Notes: generated by a model from the letters alone, not told the origin. A stretch of DNA of 64,000 nucleotides from an uncultured Candidatus Saccharibacteria bacterium (GCA_964479005.1 CAYZJA010000001.1:96001-160000), one strand, 5' to 3'. Counted from the first letter of the stretch, positions 5,750-21,863 are shown. A program made the numbers and translations.

Positions 5750-6949
5750 ATGGCAGAAAAAGAGAAATTTGTTCGTGGAAAAACACATATGAATGTAGGA
5801 ACCATTGGTCATATTGATCATGGTAAAACTACCTTAACAGCAGCTATTTCACATGCGCTTCACCTGAAAGGTTTAGCGAAGAAGGCCCTTAATGTTGCTG
5901 AAATTGATAAGGCTCCTGAAGAAAAAGCCCGTGGTATTACCATTAACGTTCATCATTCCGAGTATGAAACTGAAAAAAGGCATTATGCTCATATCGATTG
6001 TCCAGGACATATTGATTATATTAAAAATATGGTCACTGGATCAGCGCAAATGGATGGCGCCATCCTAGTAGTTTCTGCTCCTGATGGCCCTATGCCGCAA
6101 ACATTTGAGCATATTCTTTTAGCTCGTCAAGTTGGAGTTCCTGCAATGGTAGTCTTTTTGAATAAAACAGACATGGTTCAGGATAAAGAATTATTGGAAT
6201 TAGTGGAAACTGAGATAAGGGAACTTTTAACTAAGAATGGTTATCCTGGAAATGATGTTCCTATAATAAAGGGATCATCTTTAAAAGCATTGGATGCTAA
6301 ATCTGTTGATGATACTGAAATAAAGCCAATATTTGAATTAATAGATGCGCTTGATTCTTATTTCCCTGATCCAGTAAGGGATACAGATAAACCATTTCTT
6401 ATGCCTATTGAAGATATATTCTCTATAGAAGGACGTGGTACTGTAGCTACTGGAAGAGTTGAAAGAGGAAGAATTAATATCAATGATGAAGTAGAAATTA
6501 TAGGATATCATCCAACAGTAAAAACTGTTGTGACTGGCCTTGAAATGTTTAATAAATCTCTTGATGAAAGCCAAGCTGGAGATAACGTAGGCGTTCTATT
6601 AAGAGGAACTAAGAAAGAAGAAATAAGGAGAGGCCAAGTATTAGCTAAGCCAGGTTCTATTACTCCTCATACAGAGTTTGAAGCAGAGGTTTATATCTTA
6701 GCCAAAGAAGAAGGCGGAAGGCATACGCCGTTCTTTAGTGGCTATAAGCCCCAATTCTTTATTCGCACAGCTGATGTTACAGGAGAAGTTACTCTTCCTG
6801 AAGGAGTAGAAATGGTTATGCCTGGCGATAATGTAAAGTTTAAAGTTAAATTAATTGCTCCAGTTGCGTTAGACGATACTTCTCGTTTTGCCATTAGAGA
6901 AGGTGGACGAACTGTAGGTGCTGGAGTTGTTACAAAAATTATAAAGTAA
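5750..6949 (+). CDS. tuf: elongation factor Tu
   Basis: [26 protein letters not shown]; 399 aa. Confidence 0.97.
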
Positions 6950-6959
6950 AGAATTTATC

Positions 6960-7286
6960 GTGCCTACTTCTAAGACCGAGATTCAACAGAAGATTAGAAT
7001 TAAAATAAAGGGCTATGATCATCGGATCCTTGACAACTCTTGTCAGCAAATTATTGAGACTGTAATGAGATATGGCAGCGAAGCTATTGGTCCAATCCCT
7101 TTGCCAACCGAAATTCATCGTTATACAGTGAATAGGGCTACTTTTGTTAAAAAGGATGCCAGGGAGCAGTTTGAAATCAGGATTCATAAAAGATTGATAG
7201 AAATTCCTAATCCTAATCAGAAAATTATTGAAGCCCTTACAAGTTTAGATTTGCCGGCAGGAGTAGATATAGAAATAAAGATGTAA
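6960..7286 (+). CDS. rpsJ: 30S ribosomal protein S10 (GTG start)
   Basis: [16 protein letters not shown]... S10 signature. Confidence 0.95.
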
Positions 7287-7299
7287 AATCAGCACAGCT

Positions 7300-7345
7300 A
7301 GTCTATAGCGGTAACCTTGAGGAAAACTGGGCTAGTGCCCAGTTT
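7300..7345 (+). promoter_or_regulatory. stable hairpin between rpsJ and rplC (AACTGGGC-tagt-GCCCAGTT followed by TTTT); possible attenuator or processing site
   Basis: 8-bp GC-rich perfect stem then U-run, inside the operon. Confidence 0.3.
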
Positions 7346-7360
7346 TTCAATGTCAAATTT

Positions 7361-7960
7361 ATGAAATTTATATTAGCTAAAAAATTGAAAATGTCGCAGG
7401 TTTTTGATAGCGAAGAAAAAGTTATTCCAGTAACTATTTTAGAGGCTGGTCCTGTTAAAATTACACAAATAAAAACCGAAGATAAAGATGGTTATGAAGC
7501 TATTCAGATTGGCTATGGGCATAAAAAAAATCAAACAAAAGCTTTGGCCGGGCACTTAAAGGATTTAGGAAAGTTTTCTTGGCTAGCAGAAATTCATGGA
7601 AAGGTTTCTGATTACAAAGTTGGTGATGAAATTAAGGTAGATATTTTTAAAGAAGGGGATAAAGTAATAGTAATAGGAAAAAGTAAGGGAAAGGGCTTTC
7701 AGGGCGTGGTTAAAAGACATGGATTTAGAGGTTCTCCTGCAAGCCACGGAACAAAAGATAGATTGAGAGCGCCTGGATCAATTGGCGCTACTGGGCTTCA
7801 TCGTGTAGTAAAGGGCAAAAAAATGGCGGGCAGAATGGGCCAGGATCAGTTGACATTAAAAAAAATAGAGGTTATAAAAGTTGATTCAGAAAAAGGTCTT
7901 CTTTATTTGAAAGGAGCTATTCCCGGCAGAAGAGGTTCATTAATAAAAGTTATGGGATAA
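7361..7960 (+). CDS. rplC: 50S ribosomal protein L3
   Basis: Sequence similarity to L3; S10 operon order. Confidence 0.95.
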   Translation: MKFILAKKLKMSQVFDSEEKVIPVTILEAGPVKITQIKTEDKDGYEAIQIGYGHKKNQTKALAGHLKDLGKFSWLAEIHGKVSDYKVGDEIKVDIFKEGDKVIVIGKSKGKGFQGVVKRHGFRGSPASHGTKDRLRAPGSIGATGLHRVVKGKKMAGRMGQDQLTLKKIEVIKVDSEKGLLYLKGAIPGRRGSLIKVMG

Positions 7961-7965
7961 AAGAT

Positions 7966-8598
7966 ATGAAAGCGCCTATTTACAATTTAAAAGGAAAGAC
8001 ATTAAAAAAGATTGAGTTATCTGAGGATATTTTTGGTAAGAAGATTAATAATAATCTTGTTCACCAGGTTTATACAAGCCTTTTAAGCAATCGACGAAAA
8101 CCATTAGCTTTTAGTAAAGACAGGTCAGAAGTGAGAGGTGGAGGAAAAAAGCCATGGAGGCAAAAAGGGACAGGAAGGGCCAGGCATGGCTCTATTCGTT
8201 CTCCTTTATGGAAAGGAGGTGGGGTGACATTTGGTCCGAGAGCAAAAGAAAGAGATTTTAAAAAGAAGATAAATAAAAAGATAAAAAAGGACGCTATTAA
8301 AATGGTTCTTTCCCAGAAGTTTAGAGATGGGGAGATTAAAATAATTGAGGATATCGATTTAAAGGAACATAAAACCAGCCAAATGGATAAATTTTTTAGA
8401 AGCCTTTTAAAAATAGAAAAGAAATTTCCAAAAGTTTTGTTTTTAATTGACTCAAAAAATGAGGTATTACGAAAGAGTGCGAAAAATCTACCCTATATTA
8501 AAATTATGAATGCTGAGAATATTGATTTGATAGAAATATTAAATAATAAATATTTGGTGATATCAAAAAATATTTTGCCAATGATAGAGATTAAGTAA
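7966..8598 (+). CDS. rplD: 50S ribosomal protein L4
   Basis: S10 operon order; L4-like sequence. Confidence 0.9.
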   Translation: MKAPIYNLKGKTLKKIELSEDIFGKKINNNLVHQVYTSLLSNRRKPLAFSKDRSEVRGGGKKPWRQKGTGRARHGSIRSPLWKGGGVTFGPRAKERDFKKKINKKIKKDAIKMVLSQKFRDGEIKIIEDIDLKEHKTSQMDKFFRSLLKIEKKFPKVLFLIDSKNEVLRKSAKNLPYIKIMNAENIDLIEILNNKYLVISKNILPMIEIK

Positions 8599-8606
8599 AT
8601 AAATTT

Positions 8607-9065
8607 ATGGGTATTTTGAATATTTTTAAAAATAAGAACCTTTTTCGTTCTACTCAAAAGAACCTTGTTTCTCGTGATGCTCGAAATAAGAAAATCGAAG
8701 AAAAAAAGGTTGAGAAAGAGAAAACCAAAAAGCCAGTAGCAGAAGAAAAGAAAGTTGAAATAAAAGGGAAGATTGTTTTAGAAGGATCCTCTTCGGCATT
8801 GTTGATTAATCCTTATTTGAGCGAAAAGTCTACTAGTTTAAGAGAGCAAGAAAATAAATATATTTTTAAAGTTAGCCCTAGAGCGACAAAAAACGAAATA
8901 AAAAAACTTTTAGAAAATATTTACAATGTGGAGGTAACCAAGATTAATGTAATAAATACCCCTGCTAAGCCTAAAAGATGGAGACAGAAAAAAAGATATT
9001 TTAACAGGAGTAAAAAAATGATGGTTACCATAAAGAAAGGCCAAAAAATAGAATTAGGAATATGA
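8607..9065 (+). CDS. rplW: 50S ribosomal protein L23 with a ~55-aa Lys-rich N-terminal extension
   Basis: C-terminal half matches L23; the extension carries two copies of the aagaacctt(gtt) motif (see findings). Confidence 0.85.
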   Translation: MGILNIFKNKNLFRSTQKNLVSRDARNKKIEEKKVEKEKTKKPVAEEKKVEIKGKIVLEGSSSALLINPYLSEKSTSLREQENKYIFKVSPRATKNEIKKLLENIYNVEVTKINVINTPAKPKRWRQKKRYFNRSKKMMVTIKKGQKIELGI

Positions 9066-9898
9066 TAAAAAGATATAAACCAACAACACCATCTCGTCGC
9101 CACTATACTGTTTCTGATTATTCAGTTTTAACTAGTGAAAAGCCTTTTAAAAGACTAACTTCTTCTAAAAAAAGAAGCGTTGGGAGATCTAAAGGAAGAA
9201 TAACGGTTCGGCATAAAGGTGGCGGCAACAAGAAACTGCATAGAGAGATTGTTTTTGGCGAGCAAAAAAAAGGAGTTCCGGGAATAATAAAGACCATAGA
9301 ATATGATCCTTACCGCTCTGCATTTATCTCATTGGTATCTTATAAAGACGGCGATTGGCGCTATATTTTATCTCCACATAATTTGAAAGTTGGGGATGAA
9401 ATTATTTGTGATGAAAAAACGCCTTTTAAGAAAGGAAATAGATTGCAATTAAAAAATATTCCAGTCGGAAGCTTGATACATAATATAGAAATTAGAGTAG
9501 GCGCTGGAGGAAGACTAGCTAAGTCAGCAGGATCTTCTGCGCAAGTTATAACCCAAGATGGAAAACATACCCATCTTAAAATGCCTTCATCAGAAATAAG
9601 GAAGATATTGGATGTTTGCTATGCGTCAATTGGGCAACTTTCTAATGTTGAACATGGAATGGTAAGCATTGGAAAAGCAGGAAGGGCGCGTCATATGGGA
9701 AGAAGGCCCAAAGTAAGAGGAACGGCAATGAATCCTGTAGATCATCCATATGGTGGCGGAGAAGGAAAAACGCAAAGAGGAACAAAAAGGCCAAAAAGCA
9801 TTTATGGTAAAGTTACTGGTGGCGTAAAAACAAGAAAGAAGAAAAAATATTCTAATAAGTTTATTATAAAAAAGCGAAAGAAAAAACGTAAAAAATAA
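9062..9898 (+). CDS. rplB: 50S ribosomal protein L2 (poly-Lys C-terminal tail)
   Basis: L2 signature; ATGA overlap with rplW. Confidence 0.95.
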
Positions 9899-9902
9899 TA
9901 TT

Positions 9903-10232
9903 ATGTCTCGTTCACTAAAAAAAGGCCCATACGTTCATCCAAAATTGTTAAAGAAACTCTCCAAGATAAAGATAGGAGATAAAACTCCTATTAAAACTTG
10001 GTCTAGAGATTCAATAATTACACCAGAAATGGTTGGTTTTGTTTTCGCCGTGCATAATGGTAAAGATTTTATTGAGGTAGAAACAAGAGAAGAAATGGTT
10101 GGGCATCATTTAGGGGAATTTTCTTTAACAAGAAAGTTTTTTAAACATGGTGGAAAAATGCAAAAAGAATTGGAAGCAAAAGCAAGGGTTTCAGAAAAAA
10201 CATCAGCGTCTGCGCAAAGTGAAAAAAAATAA
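9903..10232 (+). CDS. rpsS: 30S ribosomal protein S19
   Basis: [10 protein letters not shown]... S19 signature. Confidence 0.95.
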
Positions 10233-10251
10233 ATATTTAGCAGAATAAATT

Positions 10252-10764
10252 ATGGAAGTTAAAGCCTCTTTAAAATATTTAAGAATTAGTCCTCGGAAAG
10301 TCCGATTACTCACAAATTTAATAAAAGGGCTATCTGTTAAAAGCGCAGAAGCTAATTTGCTTCATATTTCTAAGAAAAGCAGCAAGCCTTTGTTAAAATT
10401 ATTAAGATCTGCTATAGCTAATGCTAAACATAATTTTGATTTAGATAAAGACAATCTTTTTATTAGGGCTATTAGAGTAGATGAAGGGCCGGCTTTTAAG
10501 AGGTTCCGTCCTAGAGCGCGTGGAGCAGCTTATCCAATAAGAAAAAGAACCTCACATATCTTTCTTACCTTAAAGGAAATAAAAGAAAAGGAAACTAAAA
10601 CAAAAAAAGAAGTTAAAGATGTTAAACATGAGAAGGAGATAAAAGAGAAAAAAGCTCGAGTAAAAAGTTCCGCTTTTGTAAAAAAACCAGAGTTTAAAAA
10701 AGAAGAAAAAATAATAAAGAGATCTGCTCAAAAACAAAGAATATTTCGTCGTAAAGCAATTTAA
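10252..10764 (+). CDS. rplV: 50S ribosomal protein L22 with a Lys/Glu-rich C-terminal extension
   Basis: L22 core plus ~55-aa charged tail. Confidence 0.9.
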   Translation: MEVKASLKYLRISPRKVRLLTNLIKGLSVKSAEANLLHISKKSSKPLLKLLRSAIANAKHNFDLDKDNLFIRAIRVDEGPAFKRFRPRARGAAYPIRKRTSHIFLTLKEIKEKETKTKKEVKDVKHEKEIKEKKARVKSSAFVKKPEFKKEEKIIKRSAQKQRIFRRKAI

Positions 10765-10772
10765 ATATTGAT

Positions 10773-11420
10773 ATGGGTCAAAAAATTAATCCAAAATCTT
10801 TTAGGATAGGTATTAACAAGGGATGGCATTCCCGTTGGTTTAATTTAAAAGAATCCCCAAAATTATTGGAACAGGATTATAAAATTCGTGAATTTATTTA
10901 TAAAAAAGCTAAAACATGCAGGATAGAAAGCGTGGATATTGAAAGAAAAGCCGGTGATATTAAAATTATTATTAAAACTGCTCGTCCCGGATTATTGATT
11001 GGCCGTCAGGGTAAAGGCATAGAAGATATTCAAAAAGGATTAGCAAAGTTATTAAAGATCAAATCGCGTATTGATATTTCAATTGAAGAAGTTAAACATC
11101 CGGAAATATCTGGGGAGATTGTAGCTCAAAGCATTGCTGAAGATATAGAAAAGAGAATGCCATACAGAAGAGTCCTAAAGCAATATATAACCAAAGTAAT
11201 ACAGCGTAAAGAGGTCTTGGGTGTGAAAATTATGCTTTCAGGCAGGTTAGACGGAACAGAGATTGCACGTAATGAATGGCTAAAAGAAGGAAAATTGCCC
11301 TTATCAACTATTAGGGCAGATATTGATTATGGTTTTACTGAAGCGCGTTGTACTTATGGAACAATAGGAATAAAAGTATGGATTTATAAAGGAGAAAAGT
11401 TTTCAGATATTAATAAATAG
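10773..11420 (+). CDS. rpsC: 30S ribosomal protein S3
   Basis: MGQKINP... KH domain. Confidence 0.95.
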   Translation: MGQKINPKSFRIGINKGWHSRWFNLKESPKLLEQDYKIREFIYKKAKTCRIESVDIERKAGDIKIIIKTARPGLLIGRQGKGIEDIQKGLAKLLKIKSRIDISIEEVKHPEISGEIVAQSIAEDIEKRMPYRRVLKQYITKVIQRKEVLGVKIMLSGRLDGTEIARNEWLKEGKLPLSTIRADIDYGFTEARCTYGTIGIKVWIYKGEKFSDINK

Positions 11421-11428
11421 TAATTCTT

Positions 11429-11842
11429 ATGTTATTGCCAAAAAAAGTAAAACATAGAAAAATGCATAAAGGTCGGAAGAGATTTCGCCAAGTAGAAACC
11501 AGGGGAATTGAACTTTCTTTTGGTAGTTTTGGATTAAAGGCCATGGAAGAATCCTGGTTAACATCCCAACAGATTGAATCAGCTTATCGGGCAATAGCCC
11601 GTTCCTTGCGAAAAGAAGGAAAAATCTGGATGAGGGTATTTCCTGATAAACCTATTACTAAAAAAGCGGCAGAAACTAAAATGGGCAAAGGAAAGGGTTC
11701 TGTGGATCATTACGTTTTTCCAGTAAGGCCCGGAAGAATTCTTTTTGAATTAGACGGAATCTCTTATGAAAAAGTGAAAGAAGCTTTTCGTTTGGCTAAT
11801 TCAAAATTACCAATTAAAACTTTAATTATTAGAAAACAATAA
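11429..11842 (+). CDS. rplP: 50S ribosomal protein L16
   Basis: MLLPKKVKHRK... L16 signature. Confidence 0.95.
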   Translation: MLLPKKVKHRKMHKGRKRFRQVETRGIELSFGSFGLKAMEESWLTSQQIESAYRAIARSLRKEGKIWMRVFPDKPITKKAAETKMGKGKGSVDHYVFPVRPGRILFELDGISYEKVKEAFRLANSKLPIKTLIIRKQ

Positions 11843-11844
11843 TT

Positions 11845-12045
11845 ATGGTAAAAGCAAAAGAATTACGATTAAAACCCGAAGAGGAATTAAATCAATTACT
11901 GTCTGAATCCCAAAAGAAATTACGGGAATTGAGGTTTAATTTGGCTAGCGGAAAAGTTAAAAACGTACGCACCATTCGTGTTTTGAAAAAGAACATTGCG
12001 AGAATTTTAACTATTTTAAATGAAGAAAATGAAAATCAACTCTAA
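11845..12045 (+). CDS. rpmC: 50S ribosomal protein L29
   Basis: Size, coiled-coil character and operon position. Confidence 0.85.
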   Translation: MVKAKELRLKPEEELNQLLSESQKKLRELRFNLASGKVKNVRTIRVLKKNIARILTILNEENENQL

Positions 12046-12168
12046 TTATGAGCCAAAGGCGAATAACAAGGTTCTTATTATGAGCAAAGCAAATAACAAG
12101 GTTCTTATTATGAGCCAAAGGCGAATAACAAGGTTCTTATTATGAGCAAAGCAAATAACAAGGTTCTT
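12045..12168 (+). repeat. four tandem ~31-bp units (A-B-A-B; A=attatgagccaaaggcgaataacaaggttctt, B=attatgagcaaagcaaataacaaggttctt) filling the rpmC-rpsQ spacer; each unit duplicates the rpsQ translation-initiation context aacaaggttcttat-ATG
   Basis: Direct reading of the sequence; the real rpsQ start at 12171 is preceded by the same 14-nt context. Confidence 0.9.
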
Positions 12169-12170
12169 AT

Positions 12171-12479
12171 ATGGAAAAACAAATTAAAAAACAAAAAAGG
12201 ATATTAAAAGGAGAAGTTATATCAGACAAGATGGATAAAACTGTTGTAGTTAAGGTTTCCAGATTGAAAGTGCATCCGAAATATAAGAAGCGCTATAAAA
12301 TTACCAAGCGTTTTAAAGCCCATGATGAGAAGAATGAGTGTCGTGTAGGCGATAAAGTAATGATTGAAGAAACAAGGCCTCTATCTAAAGGGAAAAGATG
12401 GAAAGTGAAACATAAAGAACAAATAACAAATAATAAGAAAGAAGATGATTCAACCGCAGACAATATTAAAAGTAATTGA
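12171..12479 (+). CDS. rpsQ: 30S ribosomal protein S17
   Basis: S17 OB-fold signature [15 protein letters not shown]... Confidence 0.9.
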
Positions 12480-12813
12480 TAATAGTGGCGCGAAAGTAAT
12501 CCGTTGTTTTCGAGTATTAGGCGGAACGAAAAGAAGATATGCTGAGATTGGCGATATTGTTGTTGCTTCTGTTCAAATAGCTGAGCCTCGTAGAGAAGTG
12601 AAGAAAAAAGCGGTAGTAAAAGCCATAATCGTGCGTCAGAAAAAGGCTTTTAGGAGAAAAGACGGAAGCTATATTCGTTTTAATGAAAACGCTGCGGTTC
12701 TTGTTAATGATAAAAAAGAACCTTTGGGTAATCGTATTTTTGGTCCTGTGCCGCGCGAAATAAAAGAAAGAGGGTATAGTAAAATAGCGGGTTTAGCCCC
12801 AGAATTAGTATAA
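12445..12813 (+). CDS. rplN: 50S ribosomal protein L14
   Basis: [17 protein letters not shown]... Confidence 0.95.
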
Positions 12814-12822
12814 TTTATATTT

Positions 12823-13131
12823 ATGAATATTAAAAAAGGCGATACAGTTTTAATGAAAAAAGGCAAAGATAAAGGAAAGACAGGTAAAGTGATAAAGGTT
12901 TTGCCAAAAGATGGCAAGGTGGTTGTTGAAGCTTTAAATTTAATAAAAAAGATTCAAAAAGCCAAAAAGGCAGGTGAAAAAGGGCAAATGATTTCAGTTC
13001 CGAGACCTGTTTATAGAGCTAATGTTATGCTAATTTGTCCTAATTGTAAGCGACCTACAAGAATTAGTTATACTAAAGATGATGGCGCTAAATACAGAGT
13101 TTGTAAAAAATGCGGTTCAAAGATTTCCTAA
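12823..13131 (+). CDS. rplX: 50S ribosomal protein L24 (KOW) with an unusual C-terminal CxxC-x17-CxxC zinc ribbon
   Basis: N-terminal KOW region; C-terminus CPNCKRP...CKKCGS. Confidence 0.85.
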   Translation: MNIKKGDTVLMKKGKDKGKTGKVIKVLPKDGKVVVEALNLIKKIQKAKKAGEKGQMISVPRPVYRANVMLICPNCKRPTRISYTKDDGAKYRVCKKCGSKIS

Positions 13132-13137
13132 GTATTA

Positions 13138-13710
13138 ATGACGTTTATGAAATTTTCTTACAAAGAACAATTTAAAAAAATAGTAATTCCAGAAATGAAA
13201 AAAGAATATCATATTGATAATGATTTGAGAGTACCAAGAATTATAAAGGTGGTGGTTAATATAGGCATAGGTCGATTAACTACTGGTTCTAAGAATAACA
13301 AAGAATTAATTAAAAGGGTTTCAGATGCTTTGGCAATAATTACCGGCCAAAAACCATCTGTAAGGGCGGCAAAAAAATCTATTGCAAGCTTTAAAACAAG
13401 AGAAGGAATGCCGATTGGTTTGAAAGTTACTTTAAGAGGCAAGAGGATGGAGGATTTTATTTATAAATTTGTTAGTTTGACCATTCCAAGGATTAGAGAT
13501 TTTTGGGGAATCCCTTTAAAGAATATTGACGAGACTGGAAATTTAAATTATGGTATTAAAGAATGTAATGTTTTTCCGGAGACAGAAAGCATACAAAATA
13601 TTCCTTCATTTGGCTTGGAAATTACCTTTGTTACAAGCACAAAAAATAGAGAGCAGTCAATGAAATTATATAAACTATTAGGTTTTCCTTTATGGCAAAA
13701 AAATCAGTAA
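13138..13710 (+). CDS. rplE: 50S ribosomal protein L5
   Basis: L5 signature; spc operon order. Confidence 0.95.
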
Positions 13711-13877
13711 TAGCAAGATCTAAAAAGAAACCCAAGTTCTCTTCACGAATAGTGCGGCGTTGTTGGCGTTGCGGAAGAAAAAAAGGCTATATTAGAGATT
13801 TTGGCCTTTGCCGTATATGTTTTAGGGAGTTAGCTTCAGAAGGAAAAATACCTGGAATAAAAAAAGCAAGCTGGTAA
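13692..13877 (+). CDS. rpsZ: 30S ribosomal protein S14 type Z (zinc-binding, 61 aa)
   Basis: [20 protein letters not shown]. Confidence 0.9.
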
Positions 13878-13931
13878 AAGGTAAATAACAAATAACAATA
13901 AACAATAGAACAATTTAGTAATTTATATCTT

Positions 13932-14324
13932 ATGACCGATCCTATAGCAGACATGTTAACAAGAATACGTAATGCTCAAGCAGTTAAAAAAGAAACCGTT
14001 GTTTTCCCTTATTCAAAAATAAAATGGGAGATTTTAAATGTTTTATCAAAAAGTGATTATATCAAGGGGTTAGATAAAACAAACAAAAAAAATAAAAAGT
14101 TTATTGAAATAATTCTAAAATATGATGAAGAGAAAACTCCAAAGATTTCTGAATTAAAGAGAGTTTCTAAGCCATCAAGACGCGTATATGTTCACGCAAA
14201 AGATATTTGGTTTTTTAAAAAAGGTTTAGGCATAAAAGTTTTGTCAACTCCAAAAGGAGTTCTTTCTGATAAAGAATCAAAGAAATTAAATGTCGGCGGG
14301 GAGATTTTATTAGAAATATGGTAA
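13932..14324 (+). CDS. rpsH: 30S ribosomal protein S8
   Basis: MTDPIADMLTRIRNA... Confidence 0.95.
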   Translation: MTDPIADMLTRIRNAQAVKKETVVFPYSKIKWEILNVLSKSDYIKGLDKTNKKNKKFIEIILKYDEEKTPKISELKRVSKPSRRVYVHAKDIWFFKKGLGIKVLSTPKGVLSDKESKKLNVGGEILLEIW

Positions 14325-14334
14325 TTTATATATT

Positions 14335-14877
14335 ATGTCTCGTATAGGTAAAAAAGAAATTAATATTCCAGATTCAGTTGAAGTAGTATTGGAAGAAAAC
14401 AAATTAAAAGCCAAGGGTCCTAAGGGTGAGGATTTTTTAATTATCAAAAATGGTTTTAAAATTAATATTAAAGATAATGCCTTATTAGTTATTCCTTTAG
14501 AGCAAAAAAAAGATACTTCTGCCCAATGGGGGACTTTAAGAGCATTAATTAATAATCTTATAATAGGGGTAGATAAAGGATTTGAAAAACAATTGGAGAT
14601 TAATGGAGTAGGTTATCGCGCTGATATGGATGGAGCTAATTTGAATCTTAAATTAGGATATAGTCATCCAATTATACTTTCTGTTCCCGAAGGACTGGAT
14701 GTAAAAGTGGAAAAAAATATAATCACTATTAATGGTATTTCAAAAGAAAAAGTTGGACAATTTGCCGCGCTAATAAAGTTTCAAAGGCCTGTGGAACCTT
14801 ATAAAGGAAAAGGTGTTCGTTATGTTGGGGAAAAAGTTTTACGAAAAGCGGGTAAGAAGGTGGTAACCACTGCTTAA
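14335..14877 (+). CDS. rplF: 50S ribosomal protein L6
   Basis: L6 two-domain sequence. Confidence 0.95.
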   Translation: MSRIGKKEINIPDSVEVVLEENKLKAKGPKGEDFLIIKNGFKINIKDNALLVIPLEQKKDTSAQWGTLRALINNLIIGVDKGFEKQLEINGVGYRADMDGANLNLKLGYSHPIILSVPEGLDVKVEKNIITINGISKEKVGQFAALIKFQRPVEPYKGKGVRYVGEKVLRKAGKKVVTTA

Positions 14878-14894
14878 ATTAATTAAAAGAGTAA

Positions 14895-15299
14895 ATGAAT
14901 AAAAATAGCAAAAGAGAGCAAAGAGAAAAAAGGCATAGAAGAGTAAGGGCAAAGATCCATGGAACAAAAGATAGGCCCCGTCTTTGTATTTTTAAATCCA
15001 ATAAGCATATTTACGCTCAAATTATTAATGATGATAAGGGATTTACACTCGTTTTTGCTTCAGATTTAGAAATCAAAGATTCAAAAAAAGATAAGAACCT
15101 TGCTTCGCAAGAACCTTGTTATTCGCCTTTGGCTCATAATAAAAAAATTAATTTAGCTCAAAAAGTTGGGGAATTAATAGCTAAGAGGGCAAAAGATAAA
15201 AAAATAACGAAAATTCTTTTTGACAGAGGTGGATTTAAATATCACGGTCAAGTGAAAACTTTAGCTGATGAAGCCAGAAAACACGGATTACAGTTTTAA
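14895..15299 (+). CDS. rplR: 50S ribosomal protein L18, with a ~14-aa in-frame insertion encoded by an inverted copy of the S17-leader repeat
   Basis: Core and C-terminus [26 protein letters not shown] match L18; ~13-15 aa longer than E. coli L18 in the middle. Confidence 0.9.
15094..15140 (-). repeat. inverted copy of the S17-leader repeat inside rplR: 15109-15140 is the exact reverse complement of unit A (32/32), preceded by a partial copy aagaaccttgcttcgc
   Basis: Reverse complement of attatgagccaaaggcgaataacaaggttctt = aagaaccttgttattcgcctttggctcataat, found verbatim. Confidence 0.85.
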
Positions 15300-15312
15300 T
15301 TTTTAAACCATT

Positions 15313-15867
15313 ATGGCTTTTAATAGAAGATCGAAGGTAAATAAAAGTGAATTTGAAGAGAGTCTTTTAGATATTGCGCGTGTAACTCGAGTAGTAGCAG
15401 GAGGAAAACGTTTAAGTTTTCGAGCTACGTTGGTAATTGGCAATAAATCCAAGCATCAAGTTGGTGTCGGGATAAGTAAAGGAAAAGATGTGGCTCAGGC
15501 GATTCAAAAAGCAAATAATAATGCAAAAAAGAATCTCATTATTGTTCCAATTATTAATGAAACAATTCCACATGAAGTAAAAGCGAAATATAAAGCCTCA
15601 AGAGTAATCATAAAGCCAGCCAAAAAAGGAAGAGGAATAAGAGCTGGCGGAGCAGTGCGAACTGTATTAAAATTAGCTAATGTCCCAAATGCTAATGCTA
15701 AAATTTTAAGTTCCAGCACTAATGCTATTAATAATGCCAGAGTAACTATTCTTGCTCTTTCTAAATTAAAGAGTTTTGTCAGTAAAGAAAAATCTAATGA
15801 AGAAAAATCCATTGATAAAAAACAACAAACAAAGAATTATGCAAATTCATCAGATAAGATCAAATAA
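15313..15867 (+). CDS. rpsE: 30S ribosomal protein S5 with a C-terminal extension
   Basis: S5 dsRBD and S5 domain-2 signature. Confidence 0.9.
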   Translation: MAFNRRSKVNKSEFEESLLDIARVTRVVAGGKRLSFRATLVIGNKSKHQVGVGISKGKDVAQAIQKANNNAKKNLIIVPIINETIPHEVKAKYKASRVIIKPAKKGRGIRAGGAVRTVLKLANVPNANAKILSSSTNAINNARVTILALSKLKSFVSKEKSNEEKSIDKKQQTKNYANSSDKIK

Positions 15868-16282
15868 TAAATCATCAAAAAAAAGGAAAGTCGGCAGAGG
15901 CGGTAAGAGAGGGACTTATTCTGGGCGAGGAATTAAAGGTCAGAAATCCCGGGCTGGATCAAAGATAAAACCTCAAATAAGAGAGATGATATTAAGGTTT
16001 CCTAAAAGACGCGGGGTGTCTTTTAATCCTTTAAAAAAGAAATCTTTAGCCATAAAATTGAATGATATAGTAAAAGCTTTTCCTGAAGGTGGCGTTATTA
16101 ACCTTAATAAATTAAAGAAAGCAGGCTTGATAAAAAAAATAAAAGGTGAAATTCGTCCAATTAAAATTTTAGGTGCAATACCTTTATCCAAAAAATATAT
16201 TATTAAAAATTGTTTAGTTTCTGAAAAAGTAAAGGAGGTAATTATAAAAGCCGGAGGAAAAATAGATTTTAAAATTAAATAA
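15836..16282 (+). CDS. rplO: 50S ribosomal protein L15 (start chosen at MQIHQIRS; the ORF tool start at 15776 is also possible). It directly follows rpsE with no L30 gene between.
   Basis: KVGRGGKRGTYSGRGIKGQKSRAG matches the L15 glycine-rich N-terminus. Confidence 0.8.
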   Translation: MMQIHQIRSNNKSSKKRKVGRGGKRGTYSGRGIKGQKSRAGSKIKPQIREMILRFPKRRGVSFNPLKKKSLAIKLNDIVKAFPEGGVINLNKLKKAGLIKKIKGEIRPIKILGAIPLSKKYIIKNCLVSEKVKEVIIKAGGKIDFKIK

Positions 16283-16289
16283 ATTTAAT

Positions 16290-17561
16290 ATGTTCAAAAA
16301 TCTTTTAGCTCTATTACGAACGCCTGATTTAAGAAAAAAAGTAATTATAATTTTACTGCTCTTGGTGATTTTTCGGATAATGGCTACCATTCCATTGCCT
16401 AATGTTGACAGAGAGCAATTACAGGTTTTCCTCAGCGCTAATCAGATATTCGGGCTTTTTAACGTTTTTACAGGAGGCGCTTTTAAAAATATTTCAATTG
16501 CTTTACTCGGTGTCGGGCCTTTTATTACAGCTTCTATTATAATGCAGCTTCTTACCATGGTTTTTCCTGCCTTAAAAGAGATGCTTAGCCAAGGTACTGA
16601 TAAAGAAAGAGCAAAATTTATGCAATATTCCCGTTTATTGACGATTCCTTTAGCTGCTTTGCAGGGATTTGGTTTTTTAAATTTATTAAGCAGGCAGGGT
16701 GTTATTGTTTTTGCTAATCCTATTGATTTGATAAGAAGTGTTATTATAGTTACTACGGCTTCAATATTTTTGATGTGGATTGGTGAATTGATAACAGAAC
16801 AAAAATTGGGAAATGGAATTTCTTTAATAATTTTTACAGGTATTGTTATAGGTTTTCCACGTGAAATTATGCAAACAATAATAAGCACAGACCCAACAAG
16901 GCTTCCTAATATGATAGCGTTTTTTGCTATTGCGCTTTTGATGATTGTAGGAGTGGTATTTATTTCAAGGGGAGAAAGAAGGATTCCTGTGAGTTATGCA
17001 AAGCAAGTGCGTGGAACAAAAATTTATGGGGGGGCTTCTACATATTTACCATTGAAAATCAATCAAGCTGGCGTAATTCCTATTATTTTTGCTCTTTCTA
17101 TTTTAATGTTTCCTCAAATGATTAGTCAGTTTTTAGCAAATTCACAAAGTCCGTTTATGCTTAAAATGGCTCTCTTTTTGCAAGGATTTAATCAACAATC
17201 ATTAATTTATCTTGCTTGTTATTTTGGTTTGGTTGTTCTATTTACGTTTTTTTATACAACCATTACTTTTAATCCTGAAACTATTGCTGAAAACTTACAA
17301 AAAAGAGGCGGTTTTGTTCCTGGTTATCGGCCTGGCAAAATAACTTCACAATACCTTGTCAACACCAGCCATAAGGTTACTTTTTTTGGAGCTATATTCT
17401 TGGGCATGATCGCTATTCTTCCAATAATTATGCAGCAGACTACCGGTGTTACCACTTTTGCTATTGGAGGTACTTCAATCTTAATTATGGTAAGTGTAGC
17501 TATAGAAGTCATGGATACAATAGAAGCTCAATTAATAATGCGTGAATATGAAATCTCATAA
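16290..17561 (+). CDS. secY: preprotein translocase SecY
   Basis: 10-TM protein with SecY signatures, follows rplO. Confidence 0.95.
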   Translation: MFKNLLALLRTPDLRKKVIIILLLLVIFRIMATIPLPNVDREQLQVFLSANQIFGLFNVFTGGAFKNISIALLGVGPFITASIIMQLLTMVFPALKEMLSQGTDKERAKFMQYSRLLTIPLAALQGFGFLNLLSRQGVIVFANPIDLIRSVIIVTTASIFLMWIGELITEQKLGNGISLIIFTGIVIGFPREIMQTIISTDPTRLPNMIAFFAIALLMIVGVVFISRGERRIPVSYAKQVRGTKIYGGASTYLPLKINQAGVIPIIFALSILMFPQMISQFLANSQSPFMLKMALFLQGFNQQSLIYLACYFGLVVLFTFFYTTITFNPETIAENLQKRGGFVPGYRPGKITSQYLVNTSHKVTFFGAIFLGMIAILPIIMQQTTGVTTFAIGGTSILIMVSVAIEVMDTIEAQLIMREYEIS

Positions 17562-18192
17562 TATCATTTTTTTAGGACGCTCTGGTTCGGGAAAAGGCAC
17601 ACAGGCAGAATTATTAATGAAAAAATTCGCCTTAGTGAATATAGATACAGGTGATATTTTAAGAAAGTTGGCAAGAAGAAAAGATAAATTTGGAAAAACG
17701 ATTTTAGAAATCATGGACCAGGGGAAATTAGTTCCAATTTGGTTAGTACTTTATTGTTGGGTGGATAAACTTCTTAAAATTTCTTCCAAAAAAGGAATAA
17801 TGATGGAAGGAAATCCTCGTCAGCTGGAAGAGGCAAAGATTTTAGAGGAAGTCTTTTCCTGGCTTGGGCGTGAAAATTTTAAAGTAGTTTATTTACGAAC
17901 ATCAGCAAAAGAAGTGATGCAGAGATTATTAATGAGGCGAATTTGTTCTAAATGCGGCAGAGAATTTTCTTTGAATTTCACTCCAAATTTAAAAGAATGT
18001 TCTCATTGTAAAGGAAAATTGATTCGGCGATCTGATGATTATCCAAAAGCTATCAAAAATAGAATGTTATTTTTTCAAAAAAAGATTTTACCTGTAATTA
18101 ATTATTTTCGAAAGAAAAAAATTGTAATTGAGGTTAATGGAGAGGGTTCTATTGAAGAAATCCATAAAGGGATTCTTAAAAAATTATTGTGA
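17542..18192 (+). CDS. adk: adenylate kinase with a zinc-binding LID (CxxC...CxxC)
   Basis: GRSGSGKGTQ P-loop; CSKCGREF...CSHCKGKL. Confidence 0.9.
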   Translation: MNMKSHNIIFLGRSGSGKGTQAELLMKKFALVNIDTGDILRKLARRKDKFGKTILEIMDQGKLVPIWLVLYCWVDKLLKISSKKGIMMEGNPRQLEEAKILEEVFSWLGRENFKVVYLRTSAKEVMQRLLMRRICSKCGREFSLNFTPNLKECSHCKGKLIRRSDDYPKAIKNRMLFFQKKILPVINYFRKKKIVIEVNGEGSIEEIHKGILKKLL

Positions 18193-18950
18193 TATATTTT
18201 AAAACTTCTCAAGATATCAGTATTCTACGTGAAGGCGGAAAAAAATTGGCATTAGTTTTAAAAAAAGTAACGCAGGCTGTTCAGCCAGGAATATCTACTG
18301 CTGATTTGGATAAATTGGCTTTTAATCTTATTTGTGAATACGGGGGTAAACCCTCGTTTTTAAATTATCAACCAAGTTTTGCTAATAAGCCATTTCCATC
18401 AAGTTTATGTACTTCAATAAATGAAACTGTGGTTCATGGCCTTCCTTCAGAGAAAAAGATCTTAAAGCAAGGTGATGTGATTTCATTAGATTTAGGAATG
18501 GAGTATAAAGGATTATTTACTGATATGGCAGCAACAGTAGGCGTAGGAGAAATAAAGCCAATATATGAAAAATTGATAAAAATAACGAATGAGTCTTTAT
18601 TACAAGCAATAAAAACGTCAAAGGTAGATAATACTTTGGGTGATATAGGTTATGCTATTCAAAAATGTGTAGAAAAAGAGGGATTTGTTGTTGTAAAAGG
18701 TTTAGTGGGGCATGGAGTTGGTTATTCTCCGCATGAAGATCCTGTTGTTTTTAATTATGGAACCCCGCATCAGGGGTTAAAATTGGAAGAGGGTATGGTT
18801 ATAGCAATAGAGCCAATGGTGACTTTTGATGATGGAACTGTAAAAGAAGAAAAAGATGGCAGTTTTGTGACTCTCAATGGAAGAGTATCGGGTCATTTTG
18901 AACATACAGTGGCTATTACAAAAAAGGGACCAATAGTAATTACGGAGTAA
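18189..18950 (+). CDS. map: methionine aminopeptidase type I
   Basis: Pita-bread fold metal ligands; follows adk. Confidence 0.95.
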   Translation: MIYFKTSQDISILREGGKKLALVLKKVTQAVQPGISTADLDKLAFNLICEYGGKPSFLNYQPSFANKPFPSSLCTSINETVVHGLPSEKKILKQGDVISLDLGMEYKGLFTDMAATVGVGEIKPIYEKLIKITNESLLQAIKTSKVDNTLGDIGYAIQKCVEKEGFVVVKGLVGHGVGYSPHEDPVVFNYGTPHQGLKLEEGMVIAIEPMVTFDDGTVKEEKDGSFVTLNGRVSGHFEHTVAITKKGPIVITE

Positions 18951-18969
18951 CAAAGGCGAGGAGATATAT

Positions 18970-19161
18970 AAGCAAGTATTTCTCTTTCACTCCTACATTC
19001 CAGCAGAGACAAACAATACTCACTCACTCGGGAACACCTTCCGAAATTCCGCTTCGCCACGTTAAACGTGGCTTCGCTCCAGTTTCGGCTTTCCTTTTCG
19101 TTCGTTTCATTTGTTTGTATCTCTGCTTCCATTAATGTCGTTCAGGAGCAAATACTTGCTT
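18970..19161. repeat. ~190-nt imperfect palindrome / long hairpin in a non-coding, GC-richer gap after map
   Basis: aagcaagtattt (18970) is the reverse complement of aaatacttgctt (19150); agcagagacaaacaa pairs with ttgtttgtatctctgct; centre ccacgtt-a-aacgtgg. Confidence 0.5.
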
Positions 19162-19605
19162 TAATATTTTTTCAACAGCCTCTTCTTGCATTAAACTTTT
19201 ATACATTCACACTTTGTTAATTGTTATTTGTTTTTTGTTTATATCCTGGAGGTTGACCTTCGAGCAATAATGTGGTAGCATATAAATGTCCAAAAATGGA
19301 CATTGTTTTTTTGACAAAAGAATAAAAATATAGAAAATAAAAATATAGAAATTATAGAAAAGGAGATTAAGAAATGAAAAAAAAGAAAGGAAAAAAGGAA
19401 AAAAGAATCAAAGAATCAAAGAATCAAAGAATCAAAGAAAATGATACCGTCTGATGAGGAGATTGGAAAAATGCTGGATATGTCTGAGTTTGTACAAGTA
19501 ATGTATATCGATTGGGGAAATCCACTGGGCACAAAGCCCATCAAATCAAAGTCAAAATAAAAGCCAGAGGAGATAAAAAAATATAGAAAAAGGAGGTGAA
19601 ATGTA

Positions 19606-19866
19606 ATGTTAAAAGTTGTAATAAAGGTTTTGTCTTTATTTGTTTTTATAGTTTTATGTTCATTATTTGCTGATAAAGCTTTATCTCAAATGATAAGTCT
19701 TTATGATAAATTTGGAACGAGATATATCATTGCAATTAATGGATTTGAATTTCTGAGTTTTATCTTTTGGACGGGGTTTATAGTCATGACTTTAATTATA
19801 TTAAAGATAATTATATTGGTTGCTACAGAAAAGAAAGAAGAAAAGCAAGAAGAAGTAGAAGAATAA
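19606..19866 (+). CDS. small membrane protein (86 aa, 2 TM, acidic tail) with a strong SD; preceded by two tiny strong-SD ORFs
   Basis: aaaaggaggtgaaatgtaATG; hydrophobic core. Confidence 0.4.
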   Translation: MLKVVIKVLSLFVFIVLCSLFADKALSQMISLYDKFGTRYIIAINGFEFLSFIFWTGFIVMTLIILKIIILVATEKKEEKQEEVEE

Positions 19867-19873
19867 AAAATGA

Positions 19874-19915
19874 CCCTCGCATCTATGGAGAGATAGGTGT
19901 GAGGGTTTTTTATTT
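19874..19915 (+). terminator. rho-independent terminator
   Basis: ccctcgca...tgtgaggg stem (one G-U wobble) then ttttttatttt. Confidence 0.65.
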
Positions 19916-19951
19916 TCTTAAATTTTTGGTATACTACAGTATATATAGAAG

Positions 19952-20410
19952 ATGAATGAACTTTGGACTATTATTATTGCTGGTTCTCCGATAGTTGAAT
20001 TGCGAGGGGCGATTCCTGTGGCTATGGGAATTTTTAATTTTGCTTGGCCTAAAGCGTTAATTTTAAGTTTAATTGGGAATATTTTACCAATTATTCCTAT
20101 AATTTGGTTTTTAGACAAATTATCTGATTATTTGAGTAAACAATTTGATATTTTTAATCGTTTTTTTAATTGGCTTTTTGAAAGAACTAGGAAAAAGACA
20201 GAAAACAGCTTTAATAAATGGGGAAAATGGGCCTTAGTGGCATTTGTTGCGATTCCTTTGCCTTTTACAGGGGTTTGGACTGGTTCAATAGCGGCATTTT
20301 TGTTTGGTGTTAAGTACAGAAACGCTTTTTGGCTTATTAGTTTGGGAGCGCTTTTTGCCGGGATATTAGTTACGATTTTAACTCTTTTAGGCACAAATAT
20401 ATTTTCATGA
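19952..20410 (+). CDS. small integral membrane protein, possibly of the putative small multidrug export protein family (COG2426-like)
   Basis: 152 aa, 4 TM helices, ELRGAIP motif near the N-terminus. Confidence 0.35.
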   Translation: MNELWTIIIAGSPIVELRGAIPVAMGIFNFAWPKALILSLIGNILPIIPIIWFLDKLSDYLSKQFDIFNRFFNWLFERTRKKTENSFNKWGKWALVAFVAIPLPFTGVWTGSIAAFLFGVKYRNAFWLISLGALFAGILVTILTLLGTNIFS

Positions 20411-21183
20411 ATAAATTTATTGTTTTTAATTTTAAAATGGCCCCAGCATCTCTTGTAGAAGCAAAAGAAATTTTTCAAATTTTTAAAAAGTTTGCGCAAA
20501 AAACTAAGCCGAACAAAATAATTATAGCGCCGCCTTCTATCTATTTAGCAGAAGCGTCAGATGTTTTTCAAAAAGAATGCATCTTAGGGGCTCAAGATGT
20601 TTTTTGGTTTAATCGTAATTCTGCTACGGGAGAGATTTCACCTAAGATGTTAAAATCATTGGGTGTAGAATATATTATTGTTGGGCATTCTGAAAGACGA
20701 GAATATTTTAATGAAACTAACGAAATAATTAATTCTAAAATAAAAGCCTGTCTAAGTAATGATTTAACTCCGATTCTCTGTATTGGAGAAAAAGAGAGAA
20801 AAAAAGGGGATTGTTCTTTATCTTTCCGGATAAAAAAGATTCTTTTTGAACAATTAAATTATGCTCTAAGAGGCATTATTCTCGAGAAATCCACAGATTT
20901 AGTCATTACTTATGAGCCAGTTTGGGCTATTAGCGCTAATCAACCAAAAGAATTGGAAGATCCAGAAGAAATTGAAAAAACAATTAGTCTTATTCGTTTT
21001 TGGCTTGCCAGACGATTTTCAGAAAATATAGCAAAAAATATACATATTCTTTATGGCGGTTCAGTAGACTCACAGAATATTTCTTCTTTTTTGTCTTTGA
21101 AAGAAATTAACGGAGTTTTAGTTGGTCGAATGAGTACAAATAAAATAGGCCTTAAAAAACTTTTTAAAAAAATAATAAAATAA
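20407..21183 (+). CDS. tpiA: triosephosphate isomerase
   Basis: IVGHSERR, CIGE, YEPVWAIS motifs. Confidence 0.9.
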   Translation: MNKFIVFNFKMAPASLVEAKEIFQIFKKFAQKTKPNKIIIAPPSIYLAEASDVFQKECILGAQDVFWFNRNSATGEISPKMLKSLGVEYIIVGHSERREYFNETNEIINSKIKACLSNDLTPILCIGEKERKKGDCSLSFRIKKILFEQLNYALRGIILEKSTDLVITYEPVWAISANQPKELEDPEEIEKTISLIRFWLARRFSENIAKNIHILYGGSVDSQNISSFLSLKEINGVLVGRMSTNKIGLKKLFKKIIK

Positions 21184-21191
21184 ATAAAATT

Positions 21192-21761
21192 ATGGATAAG
21201 AAGTATATTATAATTATAGCTATCTTAATTATTGTTAGTGGAATTTTTGCTTCGCTTATGATTTATGAAAAATTGACAGGAGTAAACAAAATTGAACCAT
21301 TAGGGATAGCATCGGAAAATATTATAGTGGCAGGAGATGAAGAAGAAATAGTTCAGGTTATTACGCCAGCGACTGTAGATCAGGAGATAGAATTAGCAGC
21401 TAATTGTGATGCTTTTCCTGATATGTTAACATCTTGTACAAAATATAAATGTCAATTTATTCATCCATTTACTGGCGAGGATATGAAGAGAGAAATTTTG
21501 GGAATAATTGATGGAAAATGTAATTATATTGAGCAGATGCCTAATAGTGGGCAAATGGAATGTAAATATACAGAAAGTTTTAGAAAAGTTGTCGCTCAAT
21601 ATTATAGGGATATTGAATATGCAGAATCTATTGGATTTGAAATAGATATAGATTTAGGAAGTGAAGAGCAAGTAACAAAATATACTATAGACGGCAAAGA
21701 GGTAGCAAATCCTCTGCAAGAAGCGACAGACACTGGAATTTGTATTATCTCAGGCTATTAA
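21192..21761 (+). CDS. hypothetical secreted/membrane-anchored Cys-rich protein
   Basis: N-terminal TM helix, 8 Cys, no recognisable family. Confidence 0.4.
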   Translation: MDKKYIIIIAILIIVSGIFASLMIYEKLTGVNKIEPLGIASENIIVAGDEEEIVQVITPATVDQEIELAANCDAFPDMLTSCTKYKCQFIHPFTGEDMKREILGIIDGKCNYIEQMPNSGQMECKYTESFRKVVAQYYRDIEYAESIGFEIDIDLGSEEQVTKYTIDGKEVANPLQEATDTGICIISGY

Positions 21762-21863
21762 AGGATAAATTTTGACCAGATATATTTTGAGAGCAAGTGA
21801 TATTAATAAAATCCATAGAAGTTAAAAATAATAAAACAAAAATATAATAAAATAAATAAAATT

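Follow-up and report, generated by a model that had tools for sequence, protein, structure and literature searches.

Why should the spacer ahead of one ribosomal-protein gene consist of nothing but a repeated start-codon context, and why should the same repeat lie, in reverse complement and in frame, inside two further genes of the same operon? The question is raised by a 64,000-nt stretch of DNA (CAYZJA010000001.1:96001-160000), referred to below as the window, which is AT-rich (32.7% GC) and represents a Patescibacteria-type bacterium; the nearest named homologues of its L18 protein bear the labels Candidatus Pacebacteria or Patescibacteria. The window contains a complete S10-spc ribosomal-protein operon on the plus strand (6960-17561), and the repeat occurs there in the spacer between rpmC and rpsQ, in rplR, and in rplW. 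A first-pass annotation had offered two explanations: the segments in rplR and rplW could base-pair with the rpsQ leader of the same polycistronic mRNA and mask the rpsQ start, or all could be footprints of a small mobile repeat tolerated in frame. The latter idea was borne out: the insertions are absent from relatives that are 92-96% identical, and the element is found at many unrelated loci, other proteins included. The three segments very probably represent recent, independent insertions of a small, non-autonomous interspersed repeat that is dispersed in Patescibacteria-type genomes. Polymorphic insertions, matches to models of the repeat family, dispersal together with tandem arrays, covariation within the hairpins, and in-frame copies in unrelated genes are the observations that carry this conclusion.

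Three related segments in one operon

In its canonical form the element is approximately 48 nt long, equivalent to 16 codons, and is laid out as hairpin 1, the box CAAGGTTCTT, hairpin 2, and the box AAGGTTCTTAT. The copies in the window and the genes concerned are:

8607..9065, plus strand: rplW (L23), 152 aa, host gene of the diverged element
8631..8688, minus strand: diverged element of a sister subfamily (ATTTCGAGC..GAGAAAC AAGGTTCTT .. AAGGTTCTTAT), in frame in rplW, adding 18 aa (54 nt)
11845..12045, plus strand: rpmC (L29), with its stop codon at 12043-12045, 2 nt ahead of the array
12046..12170, plus strand: array of element units filling the rpmC-rpsQ spacer, 125 nt, recognized by Tandem Repeats Finder (TRF), nhmmer, the covariance model, and the empty site of relatives
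12048..12207, plus strand: chain of three short open reading frames (ORFs) made by the array, from translations (12048-12083, 12080-12145, 12142-12207)
12171..12479, plus strand: rpsQ (S17), its ATG directly 3' of the last element unit (..AAGGTTCTTAT-ATG)
14895..15299, plus strand: rplR (L18), 134 aa, host gene of the canonical element
15091..15140, minus strand: complete canonical 48-nt element, in frame in rplR, encoding 16 aa (L18 residues 67-82)

In agreement with the first-pass annotation, the rpmC-rpsQ spacer (the leader) consists of four alternating units of about 31 bp. TRF describes the tandem array (12041-12170) either with a period of 62 in 2.1 copies and 98% matches, or with a period of 30 in 4.7 copies. 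Unit A, of 32 nt, occupies 12045-12076 (A1) and 12107-12138 (A2), and unit B, of 30 nt, occupies 12077-12106 (B1) and 12139-12168 (B2), followed by AT, so that the array extends from 2 nt past the rpmC stop codon up to the rpsQ ATG at 12171. Structurally, these are two tandem 62-nt composites, each made of a type A hairpin 1 with the box AAGGTTCTT and a type B hairpin 1 with the box; every unit has hairpin 1 and one box, and the canonical hairpin 2 is absent or substituted. The three unit junctions read AACAAGGTTCTTATT-ATG-AGC, and the true rpsQ start reads AACAAGGTTCTTAT-ATG-GAA. Two upstream ORFs (uORFs) listed previously, beginning at 12048 and 12080, translate as claimed, and a third at 12142 can be added. 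The first two junctions in this predicted chain overlap as ATGA, and the third uORF overlaps the rpsQ start out of frame. In the predicted fold, each element ATG of the array sits within the 5' arm of hairpin 1.

The copy in rplR shows all features of the family. Positions 15109-15140 are indeed the exact 32-nt reverse complement of unit A, a match that extends to 37 nt at 97%, and the partial copy reported beside it is a partial second box (15091-15104). The complementary core copies seen in the N-terminal extension of rplW, AAGAACCTT at 8634-8642 and AAGAACCTTGTT at 8658-8669, are likewise real; the 5' part of this gene contains two degenerate reverse copies (8631-8692), in which both boxes, the outer stem, and GA..GA are kept and the inner stem is degraded. 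With at most one mismatch, the core 12-mer occurs nine times in the window as compared to 0.62 expected matches, a count reached in none of 100 shuffles. The 9-mer box AAGGTTCTT has 14 matches (1.46 expected), eight of them inside the three element sites, and the six singleton words outside these sites have no further element features. How frequent the motif is, and whether the L18 and L23 of close relatives contain the same residues, had been named as the points on which the case would turn. The outcome was mixed: beyond the operon the motif is infrequent in the window, but the orthologous L18 and L23 of close relatives contain none of these segments, and this speaks for insertion and not for a conserved device.

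Insertions absent from close relatives

Five contigs encode an L18 protein identical to that of the window. One of these, L002, was independently assembled from another sample; its 1240 nt span the rplR insertion and are 100% identical to the window, which rules out an assembly artefact. The most informative comparisons are with two relatives, L003 (96% DNA identity to the window) and L004 (92-94%). Alignments of both with the window by blastn break at exactly three places, 8632-8684, 12034-12165, and 15094-15139, and the leader, rplR, and rplW segments are lacking in L003, L004, L006, and L008. Base-level alignment to L003 and L004 reveals a clean 48-nt in-frame insertion in rplR. In rplW, a clean 54-nt in-frame insertion lies in a Lys/Glu-rich N-terminal extension, its boundary being approximate because the T-run flanks have diverged; L23 accordingly has 152 aa in the window versus 134 aa in L003 and L006, and the insert is absent from L004 as well. 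The lengthening of L18 that had been pointed out before is thus real, although it amounts to 16 aa (48 nt) relative to the closest relatives and not to about 14 aa. The next-closest L18 proteins have 118 aa versus 134 and are 97% identical outside the 16-residue gap. In an alignment of 14 L18 proteins all have 118 aa save that of the window, P0016 (131 aa), and P0018 (144 aa), and 118 aa is also the length of most other listed L18 matches with more than 60% identity to the query.

The rpmC-rpsQ junction is empty in L004 (..CTCTAA-T-ATG..), and another close relative has only an unrelated 46-nt spacer there, which derives from a different insertion. Because the junction is empty in L004, the apparent rpsQ start context is the 3' end of the inserted element and no copy of an ancestral leader. 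Its repetition was therefore described correctly, but its origin as a duplicated ancestral rpsQ leader has to be rejected, since the empty-site relative has no leader. The same junction is filled by one canonical 48-nt element in L141 and by a 52-nt variant in L200, and the A-type and B-type units each also occur at this junction in L141 and L200. The L200 copy (4996-5051) is in frame with rpsQ, and S17 is called there as a protein of 119 aa with a 17-aa N-terminal extension. Operon junctions are occupied at differing places in every relative examined:

L004: between L4 and L23, and between L16 and L29
L003: 3' end of rpmC
L141: between S3 and L16, and between L29 and S17
L200: between L16 and L29, and between L29 and S17 (the latter in frame with rpsQ)
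L137: between L2 and S19, between S19 and L22, and between L24 and L5

Outside the operon, a canonical element is located exactly at the pgk start codon of L179 (5248-5295), a relative with 87% identity, and no copy exists at the corresponding site of the window (22640-22670). As this site is filled in L179 and empty in the window, it is an insertion polymorphism in the opposite direction. Three pairs of filled and empty sites are thus available, with the insertion point marked here by a slash: TTTTTAT/CTTTT in rplR (in element orientation), TCTAAT/ATGG between rpmC and rpsQ, and ..TTTAT/G at pgk. Each of them is compatible with a 2-bp duplication of AT or, alternatively, with an element ending in TTAT that inserts 3' of T(T/A)AT.

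A dispersed family of hairpin repeats

A scan of metagenome contigs with the 19-mer RGCRAATAACAAGGTTCTT recovered 64 loci, about 48 of which have the full extended architecture; the others look like chance matches. The canonical 48-nt unit reads TATGAGCC-GAA-GGCGAATAAC-AAGGTTCTT-GC-GAA-GC-AAGGTTCTTAT. Copies of the family are single or form head-to-tail arrays with a period of 48; other arrays have periods of 57-58 and more, and variants of 46, 52, 57-58, 62, and approximately 72 nt have longer or different hairpins. An nhmmer profile built from copies at other loci only matched the rplR segment with 63.2 bits over model positions 1-48, and matched the leader four times with model positions 1-33. 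In searches with a covariance model built from 16 sequences, the rplR copy among them, this copy scored 84.1 bits (E = 1e-19) and ranked fourth best of 85 matches, the leader reached 66.3 bits (E = 9e-15), and the rplW copy was matched over its full length (42.8 bits, E = 2.7e-8). The 85 matches are spread over 420 kb, and several contigs contain separate sites in both orientations: L134 has four element sites in 13 kb, and L176, L170, L182, and L200 have more than one site each. The rplW copy aligns to a sister-subfamily unit (ATTTCGAGC..GAGAAAC) that is also present in L134 and L154, and copies in L167 and L179 are 98% identical to the rplR insert. Between L179 and the window, elements agree at about 98% of positions, against an identity of only about 87% for the genomes as a whole.

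A genome scan retrieved the family from metagenome-assembled genomes (MAGs) labelled Berkelbacteria and Saccharibacteria, and also from three MAGs whose labels lie outside the Candidate Phyla Radiation (CPR). The contigs L194, L196, and L197, which carry family copies, belong to MAGs labelled Gammaproteobacteria and Eubacteriales. Either these bins or labels are wrong, or the family reaches beyond Patescibacteria. The repeats may also break metagenome assemblies, and we would guess that this could explain the few matches from binned genomes. No Rfam match to the element was obtained at E-values up to 1 for window positions 6000-18000 and six element-rich loci, and its assignment to a known RNA family was therefore rejected. 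A phage origin is unsupported, as the sole match on a viral contig is a chance 19-mer that lacks the other element features. The arrays are not CRISPR-like either, because the apparent spacers are the conserved hairpins themselves and recur with a period of 48 nt. Full-text literature searches of limited coverage, by sequence and for CPR transposable elements of the miniature inverted-repeat type (MITEs) and palindromic or interspersed repeats in Patescibacteria, found no prior description of the family.

Hairpin 1 comprises an outer stem, a nearly invariant tandem G·A/A·G, an inner stem, and a GAA or AAA triloop; hairpin 2 is a covarying stem of 5-6 bp with a GAA loop. The rplR copy exhibits both covarying hairpins, with the tandem G·A in the first of them, along with a direct pair of AAGGTTCTT boxes. 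Among 16 near-canonical copies, 98.1% of the cells pair, compared to at most 49.5% in slid controls, and three pairs show compensatory changes. In an alignment of 82 distinct copies, which was fitted to the model and is thus biased toward structure, 97.5% of the cells are paired (at most 61.6% in slid controls), with double-sided changes in nine of 13 pairs (113 cells). Across subfamilies whole stems are exchanged, in hairpin 1 between TTAT/ATAA, TTTC/GAAA, and TTTTAC/GTAAAA, and in hairpin 2 between CTTGC/GCAAG, CTTGT/ACAAG, CTTAC/GTAAG, CTTTC/GAAAG, and CTTCT/AGAAG. Nearly invariant are the tandem G·A/A·G of hairpin 1, the box CAAGGTTCT, and the terminal GGTTCTTAT. The hairpins are far better on one strand than on its complement; responsible for this are the G·A pairs, a conserved T·G, and the GAA triloops, among them that of the mini-hairpin sequence GCGAAGC.

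The copies occupy characteristic positions relative to genes. Forward copies often end in ..TTCTTAT, either immediately ahead of the ATG of the following gene or in overlap with it (L141, L155, L179, L192, and L200), and in about a dozen arrays of reverse copies the terminal TTA provides the TAA stop codon of the preceding gene. The rpsS-rplV spacer of a related S10 operon, in L137 (3640-3880), is filled by larger variants in reverse orientation, arrayed with a period of about 72 nt. Other copies are found in frame within unrelated genes. An amidohydrolase-family protein in L149 contains the 16-aa peptide in the same frame as L18; a membrane protein in L176 reads a copy in another frame, giving ITTLLRKNVVIHPQLII; and the N-terminus of an IscS-like protein in L194 and a GT2 domain in L197 use the forward frame (..ARNKVLAK.GSY..). 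A forward copy is in frame in the C-terminal extension of L22 in L137 (4290-4338). Four of the six frames of the element are free of stop codons, which is not taken as adaptation because it is only marginally unusual for a 48-nt AT-rich sequence (about 6% by our own estimate).

In L18, the inserted residues 67-82 lie between a short helix and the start of the long helix. An AlphaFold model of this protein, of moderate overall confidence (mean predicted local distance difference test score, pLDDT, 66.7), predicts residues 63-84 as coil with pLDDT below 50. Two relatives have unrelated palindromes inserted in this loop of L18, likewise in frame and six codons upstream of the site used in the window, one of 39 nt with a perfect 13-bp stem and one of 78 nt with a 21-bp stem (L200 8170-8225 and L198 1165-1260). 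The loop therefore accepts insertions repeatedly, as these palindromic in-frame insertions differ from that in the window. The L23 insert is situated in the N-terminal extension, and the Pfam L23 domain begins only at residue 66.

Mobility, rival explanations, and known systems

We infer that short (T/A)AT sites are the targets into which the element is copied, by transposition or a mechanism akin to it. Its strand-asymmetric hairpins, with their G·A pairs, GAA triloops, and conserved T·G, might be recognized on a single DNA strand by an enzyme of the HUH/Y1 type, similar to the systems of repetitive extragenic palindromes (REPs) and their REP-associated tyrosine transposases (RAYTs) or of the IS200/IS605 family; this step is speculative. 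The likeness to REP/RAYT and IS200/IS605 is seen in the strand-asymmetric hairpins, the short specific target, the lack of clear inverted termini, and the self-adjacent arrays, and by this analogy single-strand DNA transposition of either type is a possible, though rather doubtful, mechanism. Once inserted, the element would persist where the harm is small. At gene junctions, its ends would restore the stop codon (TAA or TGA), the ATG, and the A/T-rich context preceding the start. Within genes, the frame would be preserved because the length is a multiple of three and four of the six frames are open, and the 16-18 added residues would end up in a loop that is flexible (L18) or in an extension of low complexity (L23). 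The leader array probably arose from an A-type and a B-type hairpin-box unit, followed by a recent tandem duplication of 62 nt, and the complementarity of the leader to rplR and rplW is a by-product of opposite insertion orientations, such as any two oppositely facing copies of one element must show.

Several points weigh against such a history of mobility. The termini of the element, ATTATGAGCC and ATAAGAACC, match at only about seven of 10 positions and form no convincing terminal inverted repeats, and the target duplication is ambiguous and at most 2 bp (AT). A crude motif screen for HUH-Y1 detected no transposase or other mobilizing gene among 1094 ORFs (90 aa or longer) of the window and the retrieved loci, which cover a small part of any genome. 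Movement would be deduced from presence and absence only, and the larger covariation alignment leans toward structure through its fit to the model. In the whole window there are only three sites, all within 6.5 kb of one operon. Furthermore, the rpmC-rpsQ junction is filled in three relatives, yet empty in the two closest; the junction could be a hot spot, or the element could have been there ancestrally and then been lost precisely.

The proximity of the three sites, the complete identity of leader unit A and the rplR copy over 32 nt, and the simple tandem structure of the leader would also be compatible with a purely local event that involves no mobile family, in which template switching or gene conversion duplicated, inverted, and copied part of the operon within the operon itself. 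Local duplication accounts for the step from two to four leader units, but not for the origin of the units. A family present on many unrelated contigs includes the rplR insert as a full canonical member, with copies 98% identical to it in L167 and L179; the rplW copy derives from a different subfamily that is found elsewhere (L134 and L154); and the other loci are not syntenic with this operon, which speaks against contamination from it. A local origin is thus highly improbable. A portable module that benefits the host and is selected at its sites, such as a hairpin for mRNA stability or processing, a protein-binding site, or a DNA-uptake signal, would explain why divergent genomes show so little variation in the boxes and at the G·A positions, why copies often lie exactly at gene starts and stops in operons, and why elements are more similar (about 98%) than the genomes that contain them. 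However, copies also reside within coding sequences, in both orientations and in different frames, occupancy varies between close relatives, and the box is not over-represented as a free word outside the element, which makes a DNA-uptake sequence in particular unlikely. We regard selection for a host function as very unlikely.

Long-range RNA-RNA control, with the rplR and rplW segments having evolved to pair with the rpsQ leader and to mask the rpsQ start, was the other proposal of the first-pass annotation. Pairing in silico is strong, with predicted duplexes of -74 kcal/mol between leader and rplR and -53 kcal/mol between leader and rplW as opposed to -22 +/- 6 kcal/mol for 393 other segments of the operon, and all partners reside on one transcript of one operon. 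Such a duplex is thermodynamically possible. However, the partners are absent from the relatives with 92-96% identity, in one of which rpsQ abuts rpmC and in another of which an unrelated 46-nt spacer is found. L200 has an element at the rpmC-rpsQ junction but no complementary copy in rplR, its L18 containing a different palindrome. Identity at 32 of 32 positions is expected of copies of one element, and no compensatory variation is seen; the element also occurs at dozens of unrelated loci in both orientations, and translating ribosomes would open the pairing arms in rplR and rplW. Masking of the rpsQ start as an evolved device was not supported by this comparison, and we attach hardly any probability to it. 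An incidental effect of pairing, for example cleavage of the leader-rplR duplex by RNase III, is possible. A far-reaching extension of the mobile-repeat interpretation would have the hairpin element, not described before, mobile throughout Patescibacteria, with its strand-specific G·A hairpins read by a single-strand DNA enzyme; the element would prefer the junctions and surface loops of highly expressed ribosomal-protein operons, give rise to lineage-specific CPR ribosomal-protein extensions, and, through facing copies that form a duplex of 32-37 bp, couple or process the expression of rpsQ and rplR. We consider this combination unlikely.

Among known repeats, the Rickettsia palindromic elements (RPEs) are short, hairpin-forming interspersed repeats that lack a transposase gene of their own and occur in intergenic regions or in frame in functional genes (PMC10969869). 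The present element resembles them as a palindromic repeat in frame in intact genes (those of L18, L23, L22, the amidohydrolase, the GT2 protein, the IscS-like protein, and the membrane protein) and in adding a conserved peptide, the same 16 aa in both L18 and the L149 amidohydrolase. RPEs have approximately 100-150 bp and are restricted to Rickettsia (Alphaproteobacteria). The element described here is a Patescibacteria repeat of about 48 nt, with two hairpins and two boxes, that also forms tandem arrays; it is set apart from RPEs by size, host, and layout. REPs and bacterial interspersed mosaic elements (BIMEs) are imperfect palindromes of 30-50 nt with conserved unpaired positions, which are strand-asymmetric and clustered and insert at a short specific sequence without a clear target duplication. 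They share with the present element the short imperfect palindrome, the conserved unpaired positions, the strand-asymmetric hairpins, and the arrays, and their type of insertion would fit here as well. However, REPs are strictly extragenic and have a conserved 5' GTAG, whereas in-gene copies exist here and the consensus TATTATGAGCCGAAGGCGAATAACAAGGTTCTTGCGAAGCAAGGTTCTTATT has no GTAG. With respect to REP/RAYT and the palindrome-associated transposable elements (PATEs) of the IS200/IS605 type, neither RAYT nor TnpA was detected in the crude motif screen of the 1094 ORFs.

Mycobacterial interspersed repetitive units (MIRUs) are tandem units of 40-100 bp in operon spacers, with short ORFs that overlap the flanking stop and start codons. 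The leader array recalls them in starting 2 nt past the rpmC stop codon and ending at the rpsQ ATG, with ATGA overlaps at the first two junctions of the predicted uORFs, but its third uORF overruns the rpsQ ATG out of frame. MIRUs are not hairpin elements, are not known to occur in frame in ribosomal protein genes, and come from a different phylum. Certain MITEs can enter operons or ORFs and leave them intact (PMC10969869). As in Correia/NEMIS, ERIC, and Chunjie elements, a small non-autonomous repeat shows insertion polymorphism between strains. The defining features of MITEs are terminal inverted repeats together with target-site duplications, and their length usually exceeds 100 bp, in contrast to an element of about 48 nt with termini matching at about seven of 10 positions and a duplication of AT at most. 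Distant complementary segments near a start codon in one ribosomal-protein mRNA also recall the L20-controlled rpmI-rplT pseudoknot. Known cases of this kind are conserved across relatives and bind a ribosomal protein by mimicking its rRNA site, whereas the segments found here are lineage-specific insertions without conservation or compensatory change. Judged by analogy, the closest counterparts appear to be RPEs in behaviour, REP-like hairpin repeats in anatomy, and MIRUs in the operon-spacer arrays, and the element is a member of none of them.

Patescibacteria genomes are regarded as extremely streamlined, yet 48-nt repeats repeatedly enter the most conserved operon of the cell. It is striking that core ribosomal-protein genes are colonized in such a genome and that the same operon junctions and the L18 loop are reused recurrently. 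In different lineages the family adds residues to L18, L23, and L22, and also to S17 if the frame in L200 is real. This parallels the in-frame RPEs of another lineage with reduced genomes and provides a concrete source of lineage-specific ribosomal-protein extensions. Unusual "leaders", uORFs, and differences in length among the CPR ribosomal proteins that serve as phylogenetic markers also find an explanation in this family. Complementarity of this kind should not be taken for regulation, and the insertion polymorphisms could be used as markers for strain tracking.

Some further features of the locus and its surroundings may be recorded. No Shine-Dalgarno-like sequence precedes any of the 26 gene starts checked (window 5750-22664), the contexts being A/T-rich (..tt ATG), which suggests initiation independent of Shine-Dalgarno sequences in this organism. 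For the same reason, the AAGG of the element was dropped as a candidate Shine-Dalgarno sequence of rpsQ. A C-terminal extension of rpsQ (12445-12479) overlaps the rplN start by 35 nt. Lys-rich extensions are present in L2, L22, S19, S5, and L23 of the window, and its L24 has a zinc-ribbon-like tail (CxxC..CxxC). The 230-nt rplN-rplX spacer of L200 (5693-5923), which is absent from the window, contains GC-rich hairpins (..GCGAAGGCGAGC.., GGCGAAGCCGCC) that possibly represent another repeat family. GC skew is positive across the window (1-64000), with values of +0.05 to +0.25 that exceed +0.14 in all 4-kb bins but one, and nearly all genes are on the plus strand; both are consistent with one replichore that has the plus strand as the leading strand. 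A second small intergenic repeat, AGAGCTGATATATTGTTATCAGTCCTGTTTT, occurs at 54181-54203, 55202-55227, and 56620-56642, in two direct copies and one inverted copy that all lie just past ORF ends and resemble terminator hairpins. An inverted pair of 116 nt with 78% identity (38869-38984 and 61018-61133) and direct repeats of about 300 and 178 nt with 75-78% identity (44408-44942 and 48396-48927) are probably paralogous gene segments.

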